Shown piece after piece: positions 4,103 through 46,393 of a DNA stretch of 49,628 nucleotides; positions within the stretch are counted from its first letter, which is position 1, and each line of letters begins with the position of its first letter. The notes beneath the pieces are model-generated. The model was not told where the DNA came from and searched no databases. It worked only from the letters and a program-made list of their open reading frames with translations. Both the position numbers and the translations under genes were made by a program. The stretch lies in the sequence record NC_041874.1, one strand, 5' to 3'. The DNA comes from Escherichia phage JMPW1.

Positions 4103-4145
4103 TAGCACGAATTGCTAAACCTTCCGCAAGGCCATTTGATATAGT
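4103..4145 (+). promoter_or_regulatory. palindrome-promoter cassette
   Basis: TAGCAcgaatTGCTA, 22 nt, TGaTATAGT 4140-4145; hairpin AAGGCCA/TGGCCTT. Confidence 0.6.
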
Positions 4146-4185
4146 GGCCTTATTGAAGCAAGGCAACCAATCAGAGGAATCAGCT

Positions 4186-7545: not shown

Positions 7546-7585
7546 CACGAATTGCTAAAACGTCGGTGGGGTGACTTGATATAGT
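7543..7585 (+). promoter_or_regulatory. palindrome-promoter cassette
   Basis: TAGCAcgaatTGCTA, 22 nt, TGaTATAGT 7580-7585; imperfect hairpin GGGGTGAC/GTTACCTC. Confidence 0.6.
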
Positions 7586-7617
7586 TACCTCATCGACAAC
7601 GAAGAGAGAAAATCGAA

Positions 7618-9330: not shown

Positions 9331-9354
9331 AACCCGCTTCGGCGGGTTTTTTTA
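9331..9354 (+). terminator. intrinsic terminator (end of early region)
   Basis: ACCCGC ttcg GCGGGT followed by TTTTTTT. Confidence 0.8.
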
Positions 9355-9365
9355 TGCCTGCAATA

Positions 9366-9388
9366 TGGTAAAATAGCACTAAATGTTA
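9366..9388 (+). promoter_or_regulatory. extended -10 promoter overlapped by palindrome (terS)
   Basis: TGgTAAAAT (9366-9374); its last T is the first base of TAGCActaaaTGTTA (9374-9388), 18 nt before the terS ATG. Confidence 0.45.
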
Positions 9389-9406
9389 AACAAAGAGGAT
9401 GGATTT

Positions 9407-9931
9407 ATGAGTGAACCTAAGAACGCCCCCGTAGTCCAGGGAGGTAATTTCAAAGAGCTATACAAGAAAAAGTTCGGCACTGTTCTTGCTAAAAACCGGG
9501 CAATGACGCCTGAGCAACTATTCGATCTGTCAGTTAAGTATTTCGAATGGGCTGAGGACAACGCAATCAAGGCGTCAGAATCAGCCAGCTTTCAGGGTGG
9601 CGTTTATGAATCGCTAGTTCATAAGCCGCGAGTCTTCACCTGGACCGGATACCGACTATTCATCGGTGCAAGCGAGGCAGCAATCATTAAGTGGAAGCGA
9701 GAGGAAGAATACAGTGAGGTTATGGAGTTTGTGGAATCGGTAATCAACGAGCAAAAATTCCAGCTTGCCGCCAACGGTGTTATTAATGCCTCCTTTATCG
9801 GTAAGGATCTCGGAATCGATAAGCCAGCCTCAATCAATATCGAAAACTCGTCAGCTTCCGCATCGACAGTAGTCGCCACCACTGAGGATGCAATGAAAGA
9901 GGCAGTAAATAGCATTCTTGACATGCTTTAA
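9407..9931 (+). CDS. terS: terminase small subunit
   Basis: Immediately upstream of terL; GAGGATGG SD; FEWAEDNAIK...FTWTGYRLFIG resembles T1-type small-terminase proteins (from memory). Confidence 0.7.
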   Translation: MSEPKNAPVVQGGNFKELYKKKFGTVLAKNRAMTPEQLFDLSVKYFEWAEDNAIKASESASFQGGVYESLVHKPRVFTWTGYRLFIGASEAAIIKWKREEEYSEVMEFVESVINEQKFQLAANGVINASFIGKDLGIDKPASINIENSSASASTVVATTEDAMKEAVNSILDML

Positions 9932-14754: not shown

Positions 14755-15231
14755 ATGGCACAAATTAATGCATCTTATCAGCGAGATATGGCGATTGCGC
14801 TTCCGGGTATGGTTGCGGATACTTCAAAGTACAATATTGACGGCGCTTGTGTCGTTAATGAAGGTGATGTTCTTGTTGGCGCTGCCGTACAAGTTGTTCA
14901 AGCTCAGGCGGTTGATGGTCATAAGTTGGTTAAGGCTCTTACTACCGGAACCACTCCTTACGGCGTGGCAATCCGATCTCACTGGCAGACTGTTAACGCT
15001 CAAAATCAGATGATTTACGAAGATGGCGGCGCTATCAACGTGATGACTTCAGGCCGAGTATGGATGCTTTCCAAATCCACCGAAGCACCAACTTTCGGCT
15101 CTGCCGTTAAACTTGATGTTGATGGTCAGGAAAAATCTGATGGCACGATCGAAACAACCTGGACCTACGCTGGCGGTTGGACTAAATACAAAGATATTCA
15201 GCTTGTTGAGGTTCAGTTGCATCAACTGTAA
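14755..15231 (+). CDS. capsid decoration / cement protein paralog 1
   Basis: Upstream of major capsid; N-terminus ALPGMVADTSKYNIDGACVV is paralogous to the next gene. Confidence 0.55.
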   Translation: MAQINASYQRDMAIALPGMVADTSKYNIDGACVVNEGDVLVGAAVQVVQAQAVDGHKLVKALTTGTTPYGVAIRSHWQTVNAQNQMIYEDGGAINVMTSGRVWMLSKSTEAPTFGSAVKLDVDGQEKSDGTIETTWTYAGGWTKYKDIQLVEVQLHQL

Positions 15232-16073: not shown

Positions 16074-16101
16074 TTGACGCTTTAACAAAAAGTGCTATTA
16101 T
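16074..16101 (+). promoter_or_regulatory. promoter candidate with palindrome in the spacer (capsid gene)
   Basis: TTGACG (16074-16079), 16 nt, TATTAT (16096-16101). TAACAaaaagTGCTA (16083-16097) fills the spacer and -10. A terminator-like hairpin follows, so function is uncertain. Confidence 0.3.
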
Positions 16102-16103
16102 TG

Positions 16104-16132
16104 AAGCCGTGAACATAATCACGGCTTTTTTA
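16104..16132 (+). terminator. terminator-like hairpin upstream of capsid gene
   Basis: GCCGTG aacataat CACGGC then TTTTTTATT. Confidence 0.6.
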
Positions 16133-16152
16133 TTAACTACGGAGAAGTAATC

Positions 16153-19806: not shown

Positions 19807-19844
19807 CTGTAAAATCATCCTATCAACTCTATTCACTTAACTTT

Positions 19845-19859
19845 TAACAAAAAGTGCTA
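19845..19859. promoter_or_regulatory. palindrome TAACAaaaagTGCTA upstream of tail chaperone gene
   Basis: Consensus flanks are in minus orientation, 22 nt from TGaTAGGAT on the minus strand. On the plus strand it abuts the leader CAACCAATCAGGAG. Confidence 0.4.
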
Positions 19860-19881
19860 TCAACCAATCAGGAGAAACATC

Positions 19882-23430: not shown

Positions 23431-23784
23431 ATGGCTGCACTTGACACTTTCGGTTGGTGTACGCAGGTTCAAGGGGGCGGCGGCTCCCTTACCACTACCA
23501 ATAACGACCGCTCCATCCAGTTTGGTAACGGCTACATGCAGCTTGCATCGTCTGGATTTAACACCACTCGACGCGAGTATTCAGTCGTCTATGCCGGGGA
23601 AGATTTCATGGCTGTTTACGACTTCTGCAACTCTCACCGCATAAAGCCGTTCGCATGGACGCCGCCGGACGGGAAGATCGGAATATGGGTTGTAAAGCCT
23701 AACAGCTTGGGAGCTAAGCCAGTATCACGCGACGTGATGGAAATTAACGTAACGTTTATGGAGCAGTTTACATCTATGGAATAG
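23431..23784 (+). CDS. minor tail protein (lambda gpM-like)
   Basis: 117 aa directly after tape measure; order M-L-K-I-J. Confidence 0.8.
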   Translation: MAALDTFGWCTQVQGGGGSLTTTNNDRSIQFGNGYMQLASSGFNTTRREYSVVYAGEDFMAVYDFCNSHRIKPFAWTPPDGKIGIWVVKPNSLGAKPVSRDVMEINVTFMEQFTSME

Positions 23785-23873
23785 CACCTCATGACAAAAG
23801 CCCGCCTTGCGCGGGTGGCGCTCAGGTTTACAGATTTCACGGAGAGAATATCCAGTACACTCCAGAAGAAATA

Positions 23874-25836: not shown

Positions 25837-25883
25837 GCCTGTATAATGAGTCCACCGATAAATAGCACAAAAAGGTAAACATC

Positions 25884-32181: not shown

Positions 32182-32182
32182 A

Positions 32183-32224
32183 CGGCACAAATAGCTAAAC
32201 AAATAATTAATGAGGTGTTATAAT
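32183..32224 (+). promoter_or_regulatory. degenerate palindrome-promoter cassette
   Basis: CGGCAcaaatAGCTA, 21 nt, TGtTATAAT 32219-32224; hairpin GAGGTG/CACCTC; leader ACCAATCAGGAG. Confidence 0.45.
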
Positions 32225-32255
32225 GCACCTCATACACCAATCAGGAGAAGTTAAG

Positions 32256-33366: not shown

Positions 33367-33398
33367 AAGAAAGCCCCGCATTGCGGGGCTTTTCTTTA
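33367..33398. terminator. bidirectional terminator between ssb (+) and tail fibre (-)
   Basis: AGAAA GCCCCGCA TTGCGGGGC TTTTCTTT. Confidence 0.75.
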
Positions 33399-35243
33399 TG
33401 ATTGTTTAAGTGATTTTATTTCTTCTTTTAGAGAAGATACTTGCTTTGAAAGCTCCTGTATCGCAGCTATAGCGTCAAGCAAAAGAACGTTCTCATCCAG
33501 TGATAGCGTGTAATCTTCTCCATTCATATTTCCGTACTTTCTAACGTACTGACTATCTATGCTCATAAGTTGTTGAGCTATGAACCCTCTCCTTACAGTT
33601 TTCTCCTTGTCATAATTGTATGTGAATGATCGGTATTTCATTTTCATCAAATTATCAAGCGCCAATCTTGTTTCAATATCATTTATGTCGCTTTTAAGTC
33701 TCTCATCTGACACTGGAGACTTTGAAAATATATAGTTGACAGTACCTGAGTTATTCCCAAACGTTATGTCGTAACTCTCAGCGTTGAACGATGTATTCCT
33801 TACAATGTTACCGTTTGGCTGATTACCTGAAGCTATATCATAATCGTACACCTGAGATATTACCGCGTGGGGGTGAGAACCATTTGGAAAAATAAGCGAA
33901 CCAAGAGAGATAAAATTCCTCCAACCGCCGTTGGATACACCAACGCCGCCACCAACTAAACCAATATAACCGCTGTACTGAGAACTCATCCATGTGTTAG
34001 CCAATGTCAAATAGGTATTACCTGGAGCATATCCAGTTCCATTTGGTACTAGACCCTTGTTAAAAATCAACTTTCCGTCCAGTTTGAAATCCCACGTTGC
34101 CGCGCCCTGCTTATATCTGTCATTGATTGTTGTTATCCTTGTCCATATATCTATTTCATTACCTCCCTGCAATTCGAAAGAGGATCTGTACTTATCAACT
34201 TCACCAACCTTGAATTTTGAATCAATCCTGCCGCCTGAAGAATCGGAACCGCTTGGCGGCTCAGAGTCTACATTTTTATAAATAGACCAGTCGTTTACTT
34301 TTAGGCCTTTCTCAACCCAACCCTTAGTAGTTGCGTCCATATTGCCTTCAGGATCTTTAAGTAACTCTAATGGGGCGTCTGGCCTCAAGTTTTTCCATGA
34401 TTCTAATTTATCCTCAAGACCAGCTAAATTACCGTCCTTAGTTAAAAGATTGTCAGCATTAACGCTATTTGCTGCGTCTTTCGCTTCCTGAGCACTTACT
34501 GCCGCCGCGTCTTTTGAACTAACCGCATCATCACGCGCCGATTGAGCATCGTTCTTTGCAGAGGTTGCAGTTTGTGCTGCCGTTTGAGCGTCATTAACGT
34601 AACCTGATAAATCACCTTTCGCCTCATTAATGGCCTGAATCGCTGCCGCCTCTTCAGTGTCAATGTGAGTGATGACAGATGATTCCTTAGATCCGATATC
34701 AGTAATAGCCTGTTCCTTTGCTGCATTAATACTACCTACAGCACCGTCAACAATTTGTTGAGTCTGGTTCTTGATTGAGTTAGTTTCATCGCGTGCAGCG
34801 TTGGCTGCGTCACGCGCTAATTCAGCCTGATTTTGCGCAGCTTGAGAATCAGGTTTCGCCTTATTCACCTCAGTAACTATTTGCTCAAGTTTATCCATAT
34901 CAAGCTGATTGATGATATCAAGAGCCGCAGCAATCTCAGTTTCTTTGCTCTGGTAGTATCGCAGCGTTTCAGCAACGTTTTGAGCTAAGCCGTTTACAGT
35001 CAGTGAATCGTTAAGCAGGATCACATACTTACCGTCAGCGGCAGTCTGACCATCCGTAGAGATAGCCTTTAACTCAGTGTCGCTCACGATATCGCTGATT
35101 ACAGCCAGCTTAATTGGTTGCTCCAGGAATACGATAGTTGCACCTACTCGAATCAGAGCAAGCTGATCCTTCCATTTTGTATCGGTTCCGCGAACCGTTC
35201 CATCTGCATCCATTGATGCTGTACCGCGTCTATATAAAGCCAT
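33396..35243 (-). CDS. tail fibre with C-terminal intramolecular chaperone (peptidase S74) domain
   Basis: Ala/Gln/Asp coiled-coil shaft; C-terminus SDERLKSDINDI...RSFTYN...RRGFIAQQL...LSLDENVLLLDAIAAIQELSKQ typical of S74 chaperone domains. Confidence 0.85.
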   Translation of the reverse strand: MALYRRGTASMDADGTVRGTDTKWKDQLALIRVGATIVFLEQPIKLAVISDIVSDTELKAISTDGQTAADGKYVILLNDSLTVNGLAQNVAETLRYYQSKETEIAAALDIINQLDMDKLEQIVTEVNKAKPDSQAAQNQAELARDAANAARDETNSIKNQTQQIVDGAVGSINAAKEQAITDIGSKESSVITHIDTEEAAAIQAINEAKGDLSGYVNDAQTAAQTATSAKNDAQSARDDAVSSKDAAAVSAQEAKDAANSVNADNLLTKDGNLAGLEDKLESWKNLRPDAPLELLKDPEGNMDATTKGWVEKGLKVNDWSIYKNVDSEPPSGSDSSGGRIDSKFKVGEVDKYRSSFELQGGNEIDIWTRITTINDRYKQGAATWDFKLDGKLIFNKGLVPNGTGYAPGNTYLTLANTWMSSQYSGYIGLVGGGVGVSNGGWRNFISLGSLIFPNGSHPHAVISQVYDYDIASGNQPNGNIVRNTSFNAESYDITFGNNSGTVNYIFSKSPVSDERLKSDINDIETRLALDNLMKMKYRSFTYNYDKEKTVRRGFIAQQLMSIDSQYVRKYGNMNGEDYTLSLDENVLLLDAIAAIQELSKQVSSLKEEIKSLKQS

Positions 35244-35264
35244 AGTATAAACTCCTTAAGTAAA

Positions 35265-35295
35265 TAGCACTAATTGCTAAACGCTGATTTTATCA
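35265..35295 (-). promoter_or_regulatory. extended -10 promoter followed by palindrome (tail fibre)
   Basis: Minus strand reads TGaTAAAAT (35295-35287), 7 nt, TAGCAattagTGCTA (35279-35265), then AAGGAG and the fibre ATG. Confidence 0.45.
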
Positions 35296-35320
35296 TTGTG
35301 CTATCCGACTTGCAATGGAC

Positions 35321-35344
35321 AATAAAAAACCGCCAGAAGGCGGT
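35321..35344 (-). terminator. intrinsic terminator after primase gene
   Basis: Minus strand: ACCGCC ttct GGCGGT then TTTTTTATT. Confidence 0.75.
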
Positions 35345-36279
35345 CAGAGTAGGTCACTTGCTGAGAATAACTTGGCTTGCATTCCTGAGCGGTATCCTCC
35401 AGGATTTGGGATGATTATTTTTAATTGTCGGTCGTCTGCCATGTATAAAGTCTCCTTGTCTGAAGGTTCGCACGCAACCCTTACTTCTCGATCCCCTTTA
35501 TATCTGTATGCAACCATTTCCAGATTCTCAGGAGTGAAGCAGGCCCATACCTCTTGCTTTGTGTGAAATGCAATATGCTGAGCATCAATCCAATTAAGGC
35601 ATAAGTAGATCGCTTTTTCTGTTTTACCAGTCACGGCAACCGAGCAACTTGTGTATTTCTTAGCGTAAAATGACTCCCTACCCTCCTCATCAATAATCAA
35701 AATATTACAAAACTCATCATCAAGACCGTCCTCGTGTACAAGTTGACATGGTATGGTGTGAAATACGCTCTCGCCGCCATCCTCGCGACGTTTTACGCCA
35801 ACGTCGAATGATTCAGTAGGTAGAGATTCAAACATGCTTAGAGGTGTGTTTACGCGCTTCTCTGTGCGCTCCATGACTTTCATCACCGCTTCATGATCTG
35901 CCATCATGACATTGACACCAGATACCGGAGTTCGGCGCGCTTTCTTGTTTGCCTTGACGATGTATTCCTGCGGAACTTTTCCGAGAAATCTTCCCAGGAT
36001 ATTTATGCATTCGCTATACGGCATACCAGTTAATTTCATTAGCCACCCGATCCCGGAGTCGTTACCGCATGAGTTGCAGATCGCACCTCCGTCGCCCGGA
36101 GTGTTCAGGTTATCAGTCCAGCGAAAGCGGTCTTTACCTCCGCAGTTAGGGCAAGGTTGGTGCTTCTTATTAAAAACATCATTCGGCAATCCGCAGATTG
36201 ATTGGAAAGCCTCGCGCCATAACCCCTTCATGTACGGCAAAACGTCCTCTTTCTGAAACATCATAAATTCTTCGTTCAC
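35344..36279 (-). CDS. DNA primase (Zn-ribbon + Toprim type)
   Basis: HQPCPNCGGKDRFRWTD...GGAICNSCG matches the primase Zn-ribbon of T7 gp4 / P4 alpha type. Confidence 0.8.
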   Translation of the reverse strand: MNEEFMMFQKEDVLPYMKGLWREAFQSICGLPNDVFNKKHQPCPNCGGKDRFRWTDNLNTPGDGGAICNSCGNDSGIGWLMKLTGMPYSECINILGRFLGKVPQEYIVKANKKARRTPVSGVNVMMADHEAVMKVMERTEKRVNTPLSMFESLPTESFDVGVKRREDGGESVFHTIPCQLVHEDGLDDEFCNILIIDEEGRESFYAKKYTSCSVAVTGKTEKAIYLCLNWIDAQHIAFHTKQEVWACFTPENLEMVAYRYKGDREVRVACEPSDKETLYMADDRQLKIIIPNPGGYRSGMQAKLFSASDLL

Positions 36280-36291
36280 TTCCAGATCTCC

Positions 36292-36332
36292 AAAATAAAA
36301 AACGCGTAGAAGGATGTTAACCCGCTACGCGT
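36292..36332 (-). terminator. intrinsic terminator after HTH gene
   Basis: Minus strand: ACGCGTAG ...15 nt... CTACGCGT then TTTTTATTTT. Confidence 0.6.
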
Positions 36333-36340
36333 CGTTTGTT

Positions 36341-36793
36341 TTAACTAAAAATGCTATTGGTCGTTCCGATATCTTCCTTCTTCACGACGCGCATAAATTT
36401 CTTGTTCTTGCATCGCTTCTCAAGGCACTTGCCGTTACCGTCAAACTTCAGGTCGAATCGCAACCATGCGGCACGAAATCCTTTGCACCCCTGTCGGCGG
36501 TAAGCGCGATGCGCAGCTTCAGCGCCTTGCCATGAAATCATATTTCGATCTTTCCAGCCTTGCACCGTCTGATTGCTAACTTTTAGAGCCTTTGCGCAGG
36601 CCGCAGGGCCGCCGTAATATTCGATAAGAGCATCAAGTCGCGCTCGCAGTCCGGCGCGTGTTTCTTCTTTATGAATATAGAACCCGCAACGCTGTCGAGG
36701 CTTTTTATCTTTACCGCGCCGTGTTCCGTTGTTACCATTGATGTGACGTTTATCGATTTTACCAGTTGATTCTGCGATACGTTGAATACTCAT
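36341..36793 (-). CDS. HTH DNA-binding protein (Cro/YdaS-like) with basic N-terminus
   Basis: ACAKALKVSNQTVQGWKDRNMIS helix-turn-helix; divergent from helicase gene across palindrome 36807-36821; followed by terminator. Confidence 0.6.
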   Translation of the reverse strand: MSIQRIAESTGKIDKRHINGNNGTRRGKDKKPRQRCGFYIHKEETRAGLRARLDALIEYYGGPAACAKALKVSNQTVQGWKDRNMISWQGAEAAHRAYRRQGCKGFRAAWLRFDLKFDGNGKCLEKRCKNKKFMRVVKKEDIGTTNSIFS

Positions 36794-36806
36794 CTTGATT
36801 CTCCTA

Positions 36807-36849
36807 TAGCACTTTTTGCTAAAAACGTTTACTTTATGCCGTGTATTAT
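36807..36849 (+). promoter_or_regulatory. palindrome-promoter cassette (helicase); shared divergent region with HTH gene
   Basis: TAGCActtttTGCTA, 22 nt, TATTAT 36844-36849. Confidence 0.5.
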
Positions 36850-36886
36850 AGCGTAAACGTTACAACGATTCAAAGGATTAATAGCC

Positions 36887-43812: not shown

Positions 43813-44011
43813 TGTACCTTTTTACGTTAAGTAGTAACTCCCCATCCTGGTCGCAAAGATTATGCTCGCTTTCGTTACTGGCCCTCATTGAAGTGAGCAA
43901 CAGACTCAACAACCCTTGCTCAAATTCTTCTTTCGTAAGCTGGAGCCTTGCGCACAATTCGACGTTCCGATCTATCAATGTTTCTACGTTCTCCAAACAA
44001 ATCCTCATCAC
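43808..44011 (-). CDS. hypothetical protein (67 aa)
   Basis: GGAGAG SD 8 nt before ATGATG; helical-looking sequence; overlaps 3' end of 43920-44327 by 92 nt. Confidence 0.4.
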   Translation of the reverse strand: MMRICLENVETLIDRNVELCARLQLTKEEFEQGLLSLLLTSMRASNESEHNLCDQDGELLLNVKRYK

Positions 44012-44327
44012 TCATCTCTCCAATGTGCATCATTTCCCACGTATACCGATTGTTGTAGCCATCAATACACATCAGCTTCATCATTACCGGGCGCTTAATC
44101 TTTCCCTTGCACCAGTAAAACCCATCCCTGCAATCAAGATAACCCTCAGTTACACAGCGTGAGCAAAACTCCTTAGATAGCGCGCTTGTAAATTCACGGC
44201 GAGTCATTCCTGCGGCCTTAGCAAATCGCTCACTTTCCTTGTGGGCGTATATAAATTTCGCTATGTGCTGTCGAGTGTATTTGTCGTAACCTTCGCAGAA
44301 CCTGAACAGATCTAAAAGAAGAAGCAT
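43920..44327 (-). CDS. hypothetical Cys-rich protein (135 aa)
   Basis: ORF track; starts 4 nt after upstream stop; C-terminal 30 aa are low-complexity R/E-rich. Confidence 0.5.
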   Translation of the reverse strand: MLLLLDLFRFCEGYDKYTRQHIAKFIYAHKESERFAKAAGMTRREFTSALSKEFCSRCVTEGYLDCRDGFYWCKGKIKRPVMMKLMCIDGYNNRYTWEMMHIGEMSDEDLFGERRNIDRSERRIVRKAPAYERRI

Positions 44328-45976: not shown

Positions 45977-46393
45977 TTATAAGTATTTGGCCTCAAAGGT
46001 TGTGCCATCTGCGATACTAAAACCGATCTCTTCGCGAAATAATGTCCAACGGCATCCGTCCTCATCAAAGATGTAACCAGCTACGCCGCCGAGAGCGCGA
46101 CCGCTTTCTACCTGGTAACGCTTTCCAACTTTGAATGATTTTTTCATCGGGTTGCGATGGTCAAGTCCGGTGCACTTTAGCGTCTTTGTTTTCAACTCGG
46201 TGAATTTCGCGAAGAAGATTTCATCAGTTCCGTGAATCTGTAATTCATCATGCTTTTCAAGTTTTAAATACTTCCCGCATTTTAGTTTTACTTCGCGAGT
46301 ACCATCATAGCGCTCACGACCTTTATACAAATTGTTTACTTCGAATCCTGTGATCTTGTCTGCGGAAGTGCATTTCAGTTTGATGGATTTCAT
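45977..46393 (-). CDS. hypothetical protein with two K-x-KC mini-domains (138 aa)
   Basis: MKSIKLKCTSADKITGFEVNNLYKG and KTKTLKCTGLD...FKVGKRYQV...DEDGC repeats; AACCAATCAGGAG leader. Confidence 0.55.
   Translation of the reverse strand: MKSIKLKCTSADKITGFEVNNLYKGRERYDGTREVKLKCGKYLKLEKHDELQIHGTDEIFFAKFTELKTKTLKCTGLDHRNPMKKSFKVGKRYQVESGRALGGVAGYIFDEDGCRWTLFREEIGFSIADGTTFEAKYL

Follow-up and report, generated by a model that had tools for sequence, protein, structure and literature searches.

The family repeat at the terS and tail fibre promoters of the T1-like Escherichia phage JMPW1: a probable operator for turning early genes on and late genes down

T1 belongs to the seven classic T phages. 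Its family, which has more than 800 sequenced relatives, uses the host RNA polymerase throughout; many of these relatives are therapy candidates against Klebsiella and E. coli. To our knowledge the transcription programme of T1 has never been worked out, and no transcription-start, transcriptome or time-course data for T1, Tunavirus, Webervirus or Drexlerviridae were found in the accessible literature.

The closest described element comes from the 2024 reannotation of phage TLS (Phage (New Rochelle), PMC11447400), which revealed a 21-nt "direct repeat", aaATAGCACnnnTTGnTAAAA, with 18 intergenic copies that lie ~76 nt 5' of start codons and are co-oriented with transcription. The repeat was said to occur in T1, Rtp and Rogue1 as well, its function was left open between a stoperator, an enhancer and a UP-like element, and only three ordinary sigma-70 promoters were found by the same authors in TLS (PMC11447400). 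Neither a 19-nt spacing to a -10, nor a class of copies that overlap promoters, nor a candidate binder is reported in that paper (PMC11447400).

The DNA analysed here, referred to as the window, is the 49,628 nt of Escherichia phage JMPW1 (NC_041874.1). The 3 kb around the terS/fibre finding has 99.9% identity to Escherichia phages IME167 and phi2013 and 94% to T1, and on this sequence evidence JMPW1 is therefore a T1-like Tunavirus (Drexlerviridae); gene names are taken from the annotated T1 record. The preliminary description of this DNA had drawn attention to a palindrome at two late promoters, and this palindrome is, judged by its letters, the published 19-21-bp Drexlerviridae repeat, the TLS repeat being the same multi-copy, intergenic sequence element. 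The repeat is real, although it is not a strict palindrome but an oriented, pseudo-palindromic 19-mer with the consensus ATAGCACnnnTTGnTAAAA (ATAGCAC-N3-TTGnTAAAA), of which the fibre copy is inverted. The positions that are conserved make up a pseudo-dyad of two half-sites, TAGCA and TAnCA, 10 bp apart, as would be expected for a dimeric HTH protein. If one mismatch is allowed, the window contains 23 matches to TAGCA-N5-TGCTA, where 1.4 would be expected and none of 100 shuffles gave more than 4. The TLS repeats DR7 and DR8 are the counterparts of the MCP (major capsid protein) and J copies described below, whereas TLS, unlike JMPW1, is without the terS and fibre copies. Although the repeat itself was known, the fixed -42 geometry, the promoter-overlapping class and the candidate binder appear to be new with respect to the accessible literature.

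The usual position of the repeat becomes clear from a scan with the oriented 19-mer (up to three mismatches) of the window, T1, IME-JL8 (Sertoctavirus), TLS and KP36 (Webervirus). At 99 of the 123 sites in these five genomes a hexamer with A2 and T6 is found 16-22 nt downstream, the distance being exactly 19 nt in 83 of these 99 promoter-linked copies, and in 43 of the 83 the hexamer is preceded by TG. The hexamers vary in a sigma-70-like manner (TATAGT, CATAAT, TATTAT, TATCAT and TAAAGT among others) and no -35 could be found at the repeat promoters, where the best match at 16-18 nt averages 2.52/6 compared with 2.47 at random genomic positions. An exact 19-nt spacing without a -35 puts the centre of the repeat at -42, which is the geometry of class II activators, and the 83 sites in the five genomes all combine the features of class II (-41.5) promoters, that is a centre at ~-42, a fixed distance to the -10 and no usable -35. 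There are ~20 promoters per genome that carry an operator centred at -42, often with an extended -10, and the same repeat/-10 pattern is seen in MM01 (Rogunavirinae). An operator in this position most likely recruits the host sigma-70 RNA polymerase in the manner of a class II activator. The idea that the 3' half of the repeat (TGnTAAAA-C) might itself be an extended -10 was discarded, since it has no T at -7 and the A2/T6 hexamer stands at its fixed distance downstream in the 83 sites.

At the -42-type promoters the 19-nt spacer and the -10 are embedded in hairpins, the sequences of which differ from site to site with the pairing kept (mean z of -3.0 across 77 sites); in 46 of these the -10 is enclosed by a helix of 5 bp or more, and at the remaining sites the hairpin ends at the -10. 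Examples in the window are found at 1074-1111, 4121-4158 and 7561-7598, with others in L024 (IME-JL8), L025, L026 and L046 (MM01). These look like terminator or 3'-end hairpins that have been fused to promoter cassettes, and transcripts begun at such promoters would be without the 5' arm. At 36295-36357 on the minus strand the repeat of the primase promoter overlaps the end of the regulator gene described below and is followed by an intrinsic terminator (hairpin and T-run). The -10 (TAACAT) is situated in the loop of this terminator, and its distance from the repeat is exactly 19 nt, a design that recurs in IME-JL8 (TAGAAT) and in TLS and KP36 (TATCAT). Furthermore, MM01 has an activator-type repeat promoter at 14821-14897 within its tail gene block, just after the major-tail terminator, and therefore the equation of activated with early is not strict.

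The copy at terS lies in a different setting. The early operon ends 5' of terS in an intrinsic terminator (stem-loop and T-run, 9331-9355, plus strand) that is kept in all Drexlerviridae lineages aligned, and downstream is P_terS, an extended -10 TGGTAAAAT (TGgTAAAAT, 9366-9374, plus strand, hexamer 9369-9374) without a -35. The T of TG and TA.A.T are invariant among nine lineages that represent several genera and subfamilies (alignment A3) and, judged by this conservation and that of the terminator, P_terS looks like a real promoter. The repeat copy ATAGCACTAAATGTTAAAC (9373-9391, plus strand) is in sense orientation and contains the core palindrome TAGCACTAAATGTTA at 9374-9388, the final T of TGGTAAAAT being the first base of TAGCACTAAATGTTA. 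With the start taken 7 nt after the hexamer, the copy spans ~-8 to +11 of P_terS and is centred at ~+1.5. It departs from the 19-mer consensus at 2 of the 15 specified positions, its end is 15 nt before the ATG rather than at the ~76-nt norm of TLS, and it falls outside the -42 class II arrangement, having no -10 hexamer 19 nt downstream. The terS gene itself (terminase small subunit, 9407-9931, plus strand) is 100% identical to the annotated T1 terS and has an SD between the repeat and the ATG at 9407. An ATG inside the repeat at 9383 (AAATGTTAAAC) opens an in-frame extension of terS, and in the record of IME-JL8 (L018/L024) the start of terS is annotated at this repeat-internal ATG; the true start is more likely to be the ATG further downstream, which is preceded by a proper SD and is the one annotated in T1.

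The terS repeat is present in Tunavirus, Sertoctavirus (IME-JL8) and L013 and was found to be absent in Tempevirinae, Webervirus and Rogunavirinae; the promoter is kept without the repeat in tuinn, slyngel, a Tlsvirus, KP36 and MM01, and the terS copy is therefore dispensable at the level of the family. Among 10 distinct Tunavirinae sequences 2 of the 26 columns of the 26-nt block of -10 and repeat vary, both at known degenerate positions, compared with 16 of 27 flanking columns (Fisher p = 1e-4), in a set that is biased as the pattern with which it was, at least in part, retrieved required an intact block. When the set was instead assembled by similarity of the terS protein, 1 of 15 sequences (L003, a natural Tunavirus) had a G-to-A change in the core of the copy, which reads TAACAC there.

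The tail fibre gene (615 aa, 33396-35243, minus strand, ATG at 35243) matches PHROGs tail fibre families with E = 1.6e-84, and upstream of it are an intrinsic terminator after the primase gene (35322-35345, minus strand) and P_fibre (35287-35315, minus strand), which consists of TTGCAA (35315-35310), 17 nt and the extended -10 TGATAAAAT (TGaTAAAAT, 35295-35287). The extended -10 is invariant in eight lineages (alignment A2), and from this conservation P_fibre also has the look of a real promoter. The fibre copy of the repeat, ATAGCACTAATTGCTAAAC (35264-35282, plus strand), is inverted relative to the fibre gene, and its core palindrome TAGCAATTAGTGCTA, at 35279-35265 on the minus strand, begins 7 nt after the extended -10. 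It spans ~-2 to +17 of P_fibre with its centre at ~+8 and is mismatched at 1 of the 15 specified positions of the consensus. The TLS description of a co-oriented repeat ~76 nt from the start codon does not fit this copy, which has the opposite orientation and stops 20 nt short of the ATG; read on the plus strand it has no -10 at 19 nt downstream and does not belong with the class II sites.

The arrangement of an extended -10, a gap of 4 or 9 nt and an inverted repeat is found in T1, IME-JL8, MM01 and Ec-G8 and also in 50EP (Nouzillyvirus), G3B1 (Warwickvirus) and K50evo13; TLS and AHP24 have no fibre copy. In the eight-lineage alignment the invariant columns are TG.TA..AT, TT..CAA...GTGCT and those around the ribosome-binding site and start codon, and within the repeat they are the high-information positions of the -42 logo (A3-C7, T11-G13 and A16-17). 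The fibre repeat is thus far wider in its distribution than the terS repeat, which is specific to Tunavirinae. An antisense promoter of the activator type was considered at the fibre and MCP copies and rejected, there being no conserved -10 19 nt away.

In position, on the sequences compared, the terS and fibre copies are an atypical subclass of the Drexlerviridae repeat. The coordinates first given for the palindrome and the -10 at both sites were all confirmed by reading the sequence, and both sites are genuine conserved copies of the element that stands at -42 of ~20 promoters without a -35. The proposal that they have a repressor-type geometry is borne out in that both copies overlap the predicted starts of promoters with a phylogenetically conserved -10; in each case the operator lies over the -10 to +20 region of a promoter whose function we infer from conservation. 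The further suggestion that these promoters have a -10 of a different flavour does not hold: TGNTAAAAT occurs eight times in the window against ~3 expected and so is not significantly special, and TAAAAT is not a -10 class of its own, as orthologous promoters use TATAAT, TACAAT or TATTAT. Both the counts and the orthologous hexamers speak against TGnTAAAAT as a distinct late -10, and the TAAAAT of terS arises because the hexamer runs directly into aaAT, the A-rich 5' flank of the repeat.

Whilst both non-activating sites are real, the set to which they belong is larger than the two originally described and includes the MCP, tape-measure-chaperone, J-like fibre and regulator promoters. In the late region of Tunavirinae all five promoter-bearing gaps hold a repeat in a non-activating position; these late copies have 1-3 mismatches, compared with 0-1 in most -42 copies, and three of the five are inverted. 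P_MCP (16074-16101, plus strand; TTGACG, 16 nt, TATTAT) has an inverted repeat at 16080-16098 that fills its spacer and that is kept in T1, IME-JL8 and TLS and degenerate in KP36. Right after this promoter, at 16103-16128 (in the region 16074-16135), there is a terminator-like hairpin with a T-run, and since the predicted MCP start is inside the 5' arm of the hairpin only upstream transcripts should be terminated. P_J (25842-25880, plus strand) has its -10 TATAAT at 25842-25847 and is followed by a partial repeat, ATAGCACAAAAAGGTAAAC (25862-25880), which reaches up to the SD/ATG of the J-like fibre gene and is kept in T1, IME-JL8 and TLS.

The control region of the tape-measure-chaperone gene (19810-19860) has a sense -10 TAAAAT at 19810-19815 and an inverted repeat at 19842-19860, and it is the only one of the late copies with an activator-type antisense promoter, in which the extended -10 TGaTAGGAT (19825-19817, minus strand) is exactly 19 nt from the repeat. 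This antisense -10 reads TGaTAAGAT in T1 and TGaTACGAT in IME-JL8 and adjoins the sense -10, and activation of the antisense promoter should shut the sense promoter, which would not be simple occlusion. The antisense promoter, which faces away from the chaperone gene, would also yield an antisense RNA that extends into the 3' end of the gene for the major tail protein.

Three further copies in the window deserve mention. A copy with two mismatches lies over the stop codon of the tail-tip M gene and is followed by a GC hairpin (23781-23815) with no T-run and no -10, and the repeat was not detected there in T1 (up to three mismatches), IME-JL8, TLS or KP36. A perfect repeat in minus orientation at 103-121 is 15 nt 5' of the -35 of a good rightward sigma-70 promoter (137-165, TTGTCA-17-TAGAAT). 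This copy, situated in the large divergent control region at one end of the genome, lacks a -10 at 19 nt; it is kept in T1, and IME-JL8 has a copy in a comparable position. Finally, at 32182-32240, 5' of the recombinase gene, a degenerate repeat (four mismatches) precedes a 9-bp hairpin, ATGAGGTG...CACCTCAT, the loop of which contains a perfect TATAAT.

A protein of 150 aa (36341-36793, minus strand), which corresponds to T1 CPTT1_056 (AAP49976), is a candidate for the binder of the repeat. The T1 record annotates it as "transcriptional regulator, HHpred P22 C2" and in PHROGs it belongs to phrog_2856, transcriptional regulator. Its Pfam matches are below the gathering thresholds (P22_Cro PF14549, 23.4 vs 30.2 bits; YdaS PF15943, 19.2 vs 30), and several homologues with ~60% identity have precomputed PF14549/PF15943 matches. 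A sequence search of the PDB gave no meaningful match and the fold search alone was informative: the AlphaFold2 model has a pLDDT of 81, with the 10-residue blocks from 41 to 130 all averaging >90, and the best matches are Xfaso1 Cro (3bd1) and N15 Cro-DNA (6on0), with a target TM of ~0.7 and a probability of 0.98-1.0, at E values of only 0.02-0.2. The predicted structure is thus an all-alpha Cro-like HTH fold. Outside this minimal Cro fold are a highly conserved basic tail at residues 1-37 that is predicted to be disordered (RIAxSTGEIDKRxxNGNNGTRRGKDKKPR) and conserved cysteines at residues 100-130, of which C128 alone is invariant in an alignment of 17 sequences. The regulator is carried by ~820 phage records, all apparently of Drexlerviridae type (T1-like), and Salmonella phage 36, which has a T1-like primase and was taken as a negative control, proved to carry it as well, fragmented in the annotation, and was thus uninformative.

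The promoter of this gene, P_reg (36845-36873, minus strand; TTGAAT, 17 nt, TATAAT), is among the few near-consensus sigma-70 promoters of the genome and should therefore need no activator. It is divergent from the helicase promoter P_hel, with which it shares a repeat (36806-36824, plus strand) centred at -42 of P_hel and at ~+14 to +32 of P_reg, and the -10 of P_hel (TATTAT, 36844-36849, plus strand) overlaps the TATAAT of P_reg on the opposite strand with an offset of 1 nt. The module is kept in 11 of the 11 genomes examined (the window and 10 others), and it constitutes the strongest circumstantial link between protein and repeat, suggesting binding of one by the other. By their overlapping hexamers P_reg and P_hel are also a mutually exclusive pair of promoters. 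The single factor that had been postulated for both classes of site therefore has a plausible form in a Cro-like HTH candidate with a strong promoter of its own and a repeat copy in its leader, and this protein is the best candidate for the binder. Two other conserved HTH-annotated proteins (43920-44327 and 45977-46393, both minus strand) are alternative candidates; as they are encoded in the leftward block, which has promoters of the repeat type, they would probably need the same factor to be expressed.

Taken together, these features suggest that one phage regulator probably turns early genes on and the terS and fibre late genes down. The explanation that we favour, and on balance hold to be probable, is that the Cro-like regulator uses a single operator to activate from -42 and to repress late promoters. 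What has been observed directly is which sequences the sites have, where they lie, how they are conserved and that the -42 geometry is fixed elsewhere; the identity of the binder, the repression and the timing are proposed on this basis. The host polymerase would begin with the activator-independent promoters, P_reg included; the regulator would then activate the ~20 promoters of the -42 type, which serve early and middle cassettes, and damp P_reg, and it would occupy the copies on P_terS, P_fibre, P_MCP and P_J and drive the antisense promoter of the chaperone gene. Packaging and structural promoters would in this way be held down, and read-through blocked, for as long as the regulator is active. 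A protein bound over -10 to ~+17 should exclude or trap RNA polymerase and stop read-through from upstream, and P_terS and P_fibre are both placed just after terminators; a bound protein would be anticipated to lower transcription at both operators. A repressor that is made early does not itself account for the release of the late promoters, no switch following automatically from autoregulation, and it is speculation that release might come from titration on replicated DNA or from a phage-made antagonist. That the late copies merely set a low constant level of expression is a reading weakened by the MCP copy, as MCP is the most abundant protein of the virion.

Several other readings of the late copies have to be set against this. 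The bound protein might act not on local promoters at all but as a roadblock or insulator, stopping read-through from the early operons over leaky terminators much as L5 stoperators do, which would agree with the place of each late copy just after a terminator and just before an SD, with the co-orientation of most copies with transcription and with the stoperator analogy proposed by the TLS authors (PMC11447400). The rigid 19-nt spacing to the -10 does not sit well with the L5 comparison, nor do the three inverted late copies out of five, as L5 stoperators are orientation-dependent; moreover the MCP copy is within a promoter spacer, and at terS and at the fibre gene the repeat is tightly spaced (0, 4 or 9 nt) from a conserved -10, for which a pure roadblock would have no need; we consider this reading unlikely. 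It seems unlikely, too, that the late copies are non-functional relics, decayed or displaced pieces of a mobile repeat-promoter cassette. Such an origin could explain their patchy presence and absence between subfamilies, their greater number of mismatches than in the -42 copies and the natural core mutation at terS in L003, yet core positions are kept while flanks diverge, the position relative to the -10 is kept across lineages whose primase proteins share only ~45-65% identity, and none of the five promoter-bearing gaps in the late region of Tunavirinae is without a copy.

No phage protein would be needed if the host machinery read the repeat, be it as a UP-like element, as a displaced -35 (TTGnTA) or through a host transcription factor. 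TTGnTA does resemble a -35, the hosts are all Enterobacteriaceae and UP-like elements were mentioned by the TLS authors (PMC11447400), but TTGnTA is 22 bp from the -10 and half a helical turn out of register, the dyad symmetry with half-sites 10 bp apart points to a dimeric HTH protein, and the element is kept where a promoter element makes no sense, in the interior of a spacer or downstream of +1; it would therefore seem very unlikely. The weakest of the four, and to our minds highly improbable, is an RNA element, the palindrome forming a structure in the 5' UTR through which the terS and fibre mRNAs would be regulated in their translation or stability. In the fibre, tape-measure-chaperone and regulator leaders the copies are indeed 3-13 nt 5' of the SD, but the hairpins (-1.2 and -3.8 kcal/mol, z = -1.5 and -1.8) are no better than those of shuffled sequences, the variable n14 breaks the pairing in IME-JL8 and no Rfam family matches anywhere in the window. 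In addition, a P_terS transcript would be without the 5' half of the hairpin, and transcription from P_MCP does not include the MCP copy.

Switching by one regulator according to the position of its operator has well-known precedents, and the regulatory logic suggested here is by analogy that of lambda CI, phi29 p4 and the controller (C) proteins of restriction-modification systems. As with lambda CI or P22 C2 at OR, where PRM is activated from -42 and PR occluded, there would be a dimeric HTH protein and one type of operator that activates when centred at -42 and represses when it overlaps the core promoter, together with a divergent, autoregulated regulator gene. The differences are that this is a virulent phage without lysogeny, that its ~25 operators are dispersed and single rather than tripartite and cooperative, that the -10 hexamer to be activated overlaps the repressed one on the other strand, and that the protein is, by prediction, Cro-like with extra N- and C-terminal regions. 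Another precedent is phi29 p4, a small protein of a lytic phage that both activates and represses sigma-A/sigma-70-type promoters and sets temporal order, although it activates late and represses early promoters, the opposite sign to what is proposed here, binds upstream sites, acts with p6 and has a fold unrelated to that of the regulator. The C proteins are small Cro/CI-like HTH dimers that bind palindromic boxes with a position-dependent sign in a timed switch, and C.EcoT38I (PDB 2ef8) is a weak fold match to the regulator (rank 20, E = 2), but they act at a single autoregulated locus and not genome-wide as would be the case here. The centre of the fibre copy at ~+8 is equivalent to that of lac O1 at +11, a proven repressing geometry, a likeness to LacI that is positional only as the protein families are unrelated. 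In T4 the MotA/AsiA system also has a phage-specific upstream box, containing TGCT as the repeat does, that replaces the -35 at extended -10 promoters used by the host polymerase; the MotA box, however, is a 9-bp monomer site at -30 that works with appropriation of sigma by AsiA, as opposed to a 19-bp dyad at -42.

A position-dependent activator/repressor would thus be an ordinary kind of switch, so far undescribed for T1. It can be taken further, though only tentatively and with more doubt than conviction, to the idea that the temporal programme of T1 and the Drexlerviridae is encoded, essentially in full, by one Cro-like protein and one 19-bp operator used in three geometries: activation from -42, occlusion of core promoters, and pairs of overlapping -10 hexamers on opposite strands in which turning one on would shut the other, with late release by titration or inactivation of the regulator and with promoters fused to covarying terminator hairpins that insulate the cassettes. 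For the family, a repeat of open function in TLS would become a concrete wiring map of activator-dependent promoters, repressed promoters and a candidate protein. If true, this would make it possible to set early and late expression rationally when T1-like phages are engineered, and a compact example from a lytic phage would join the textbook switches in which position decides between activation and repression.
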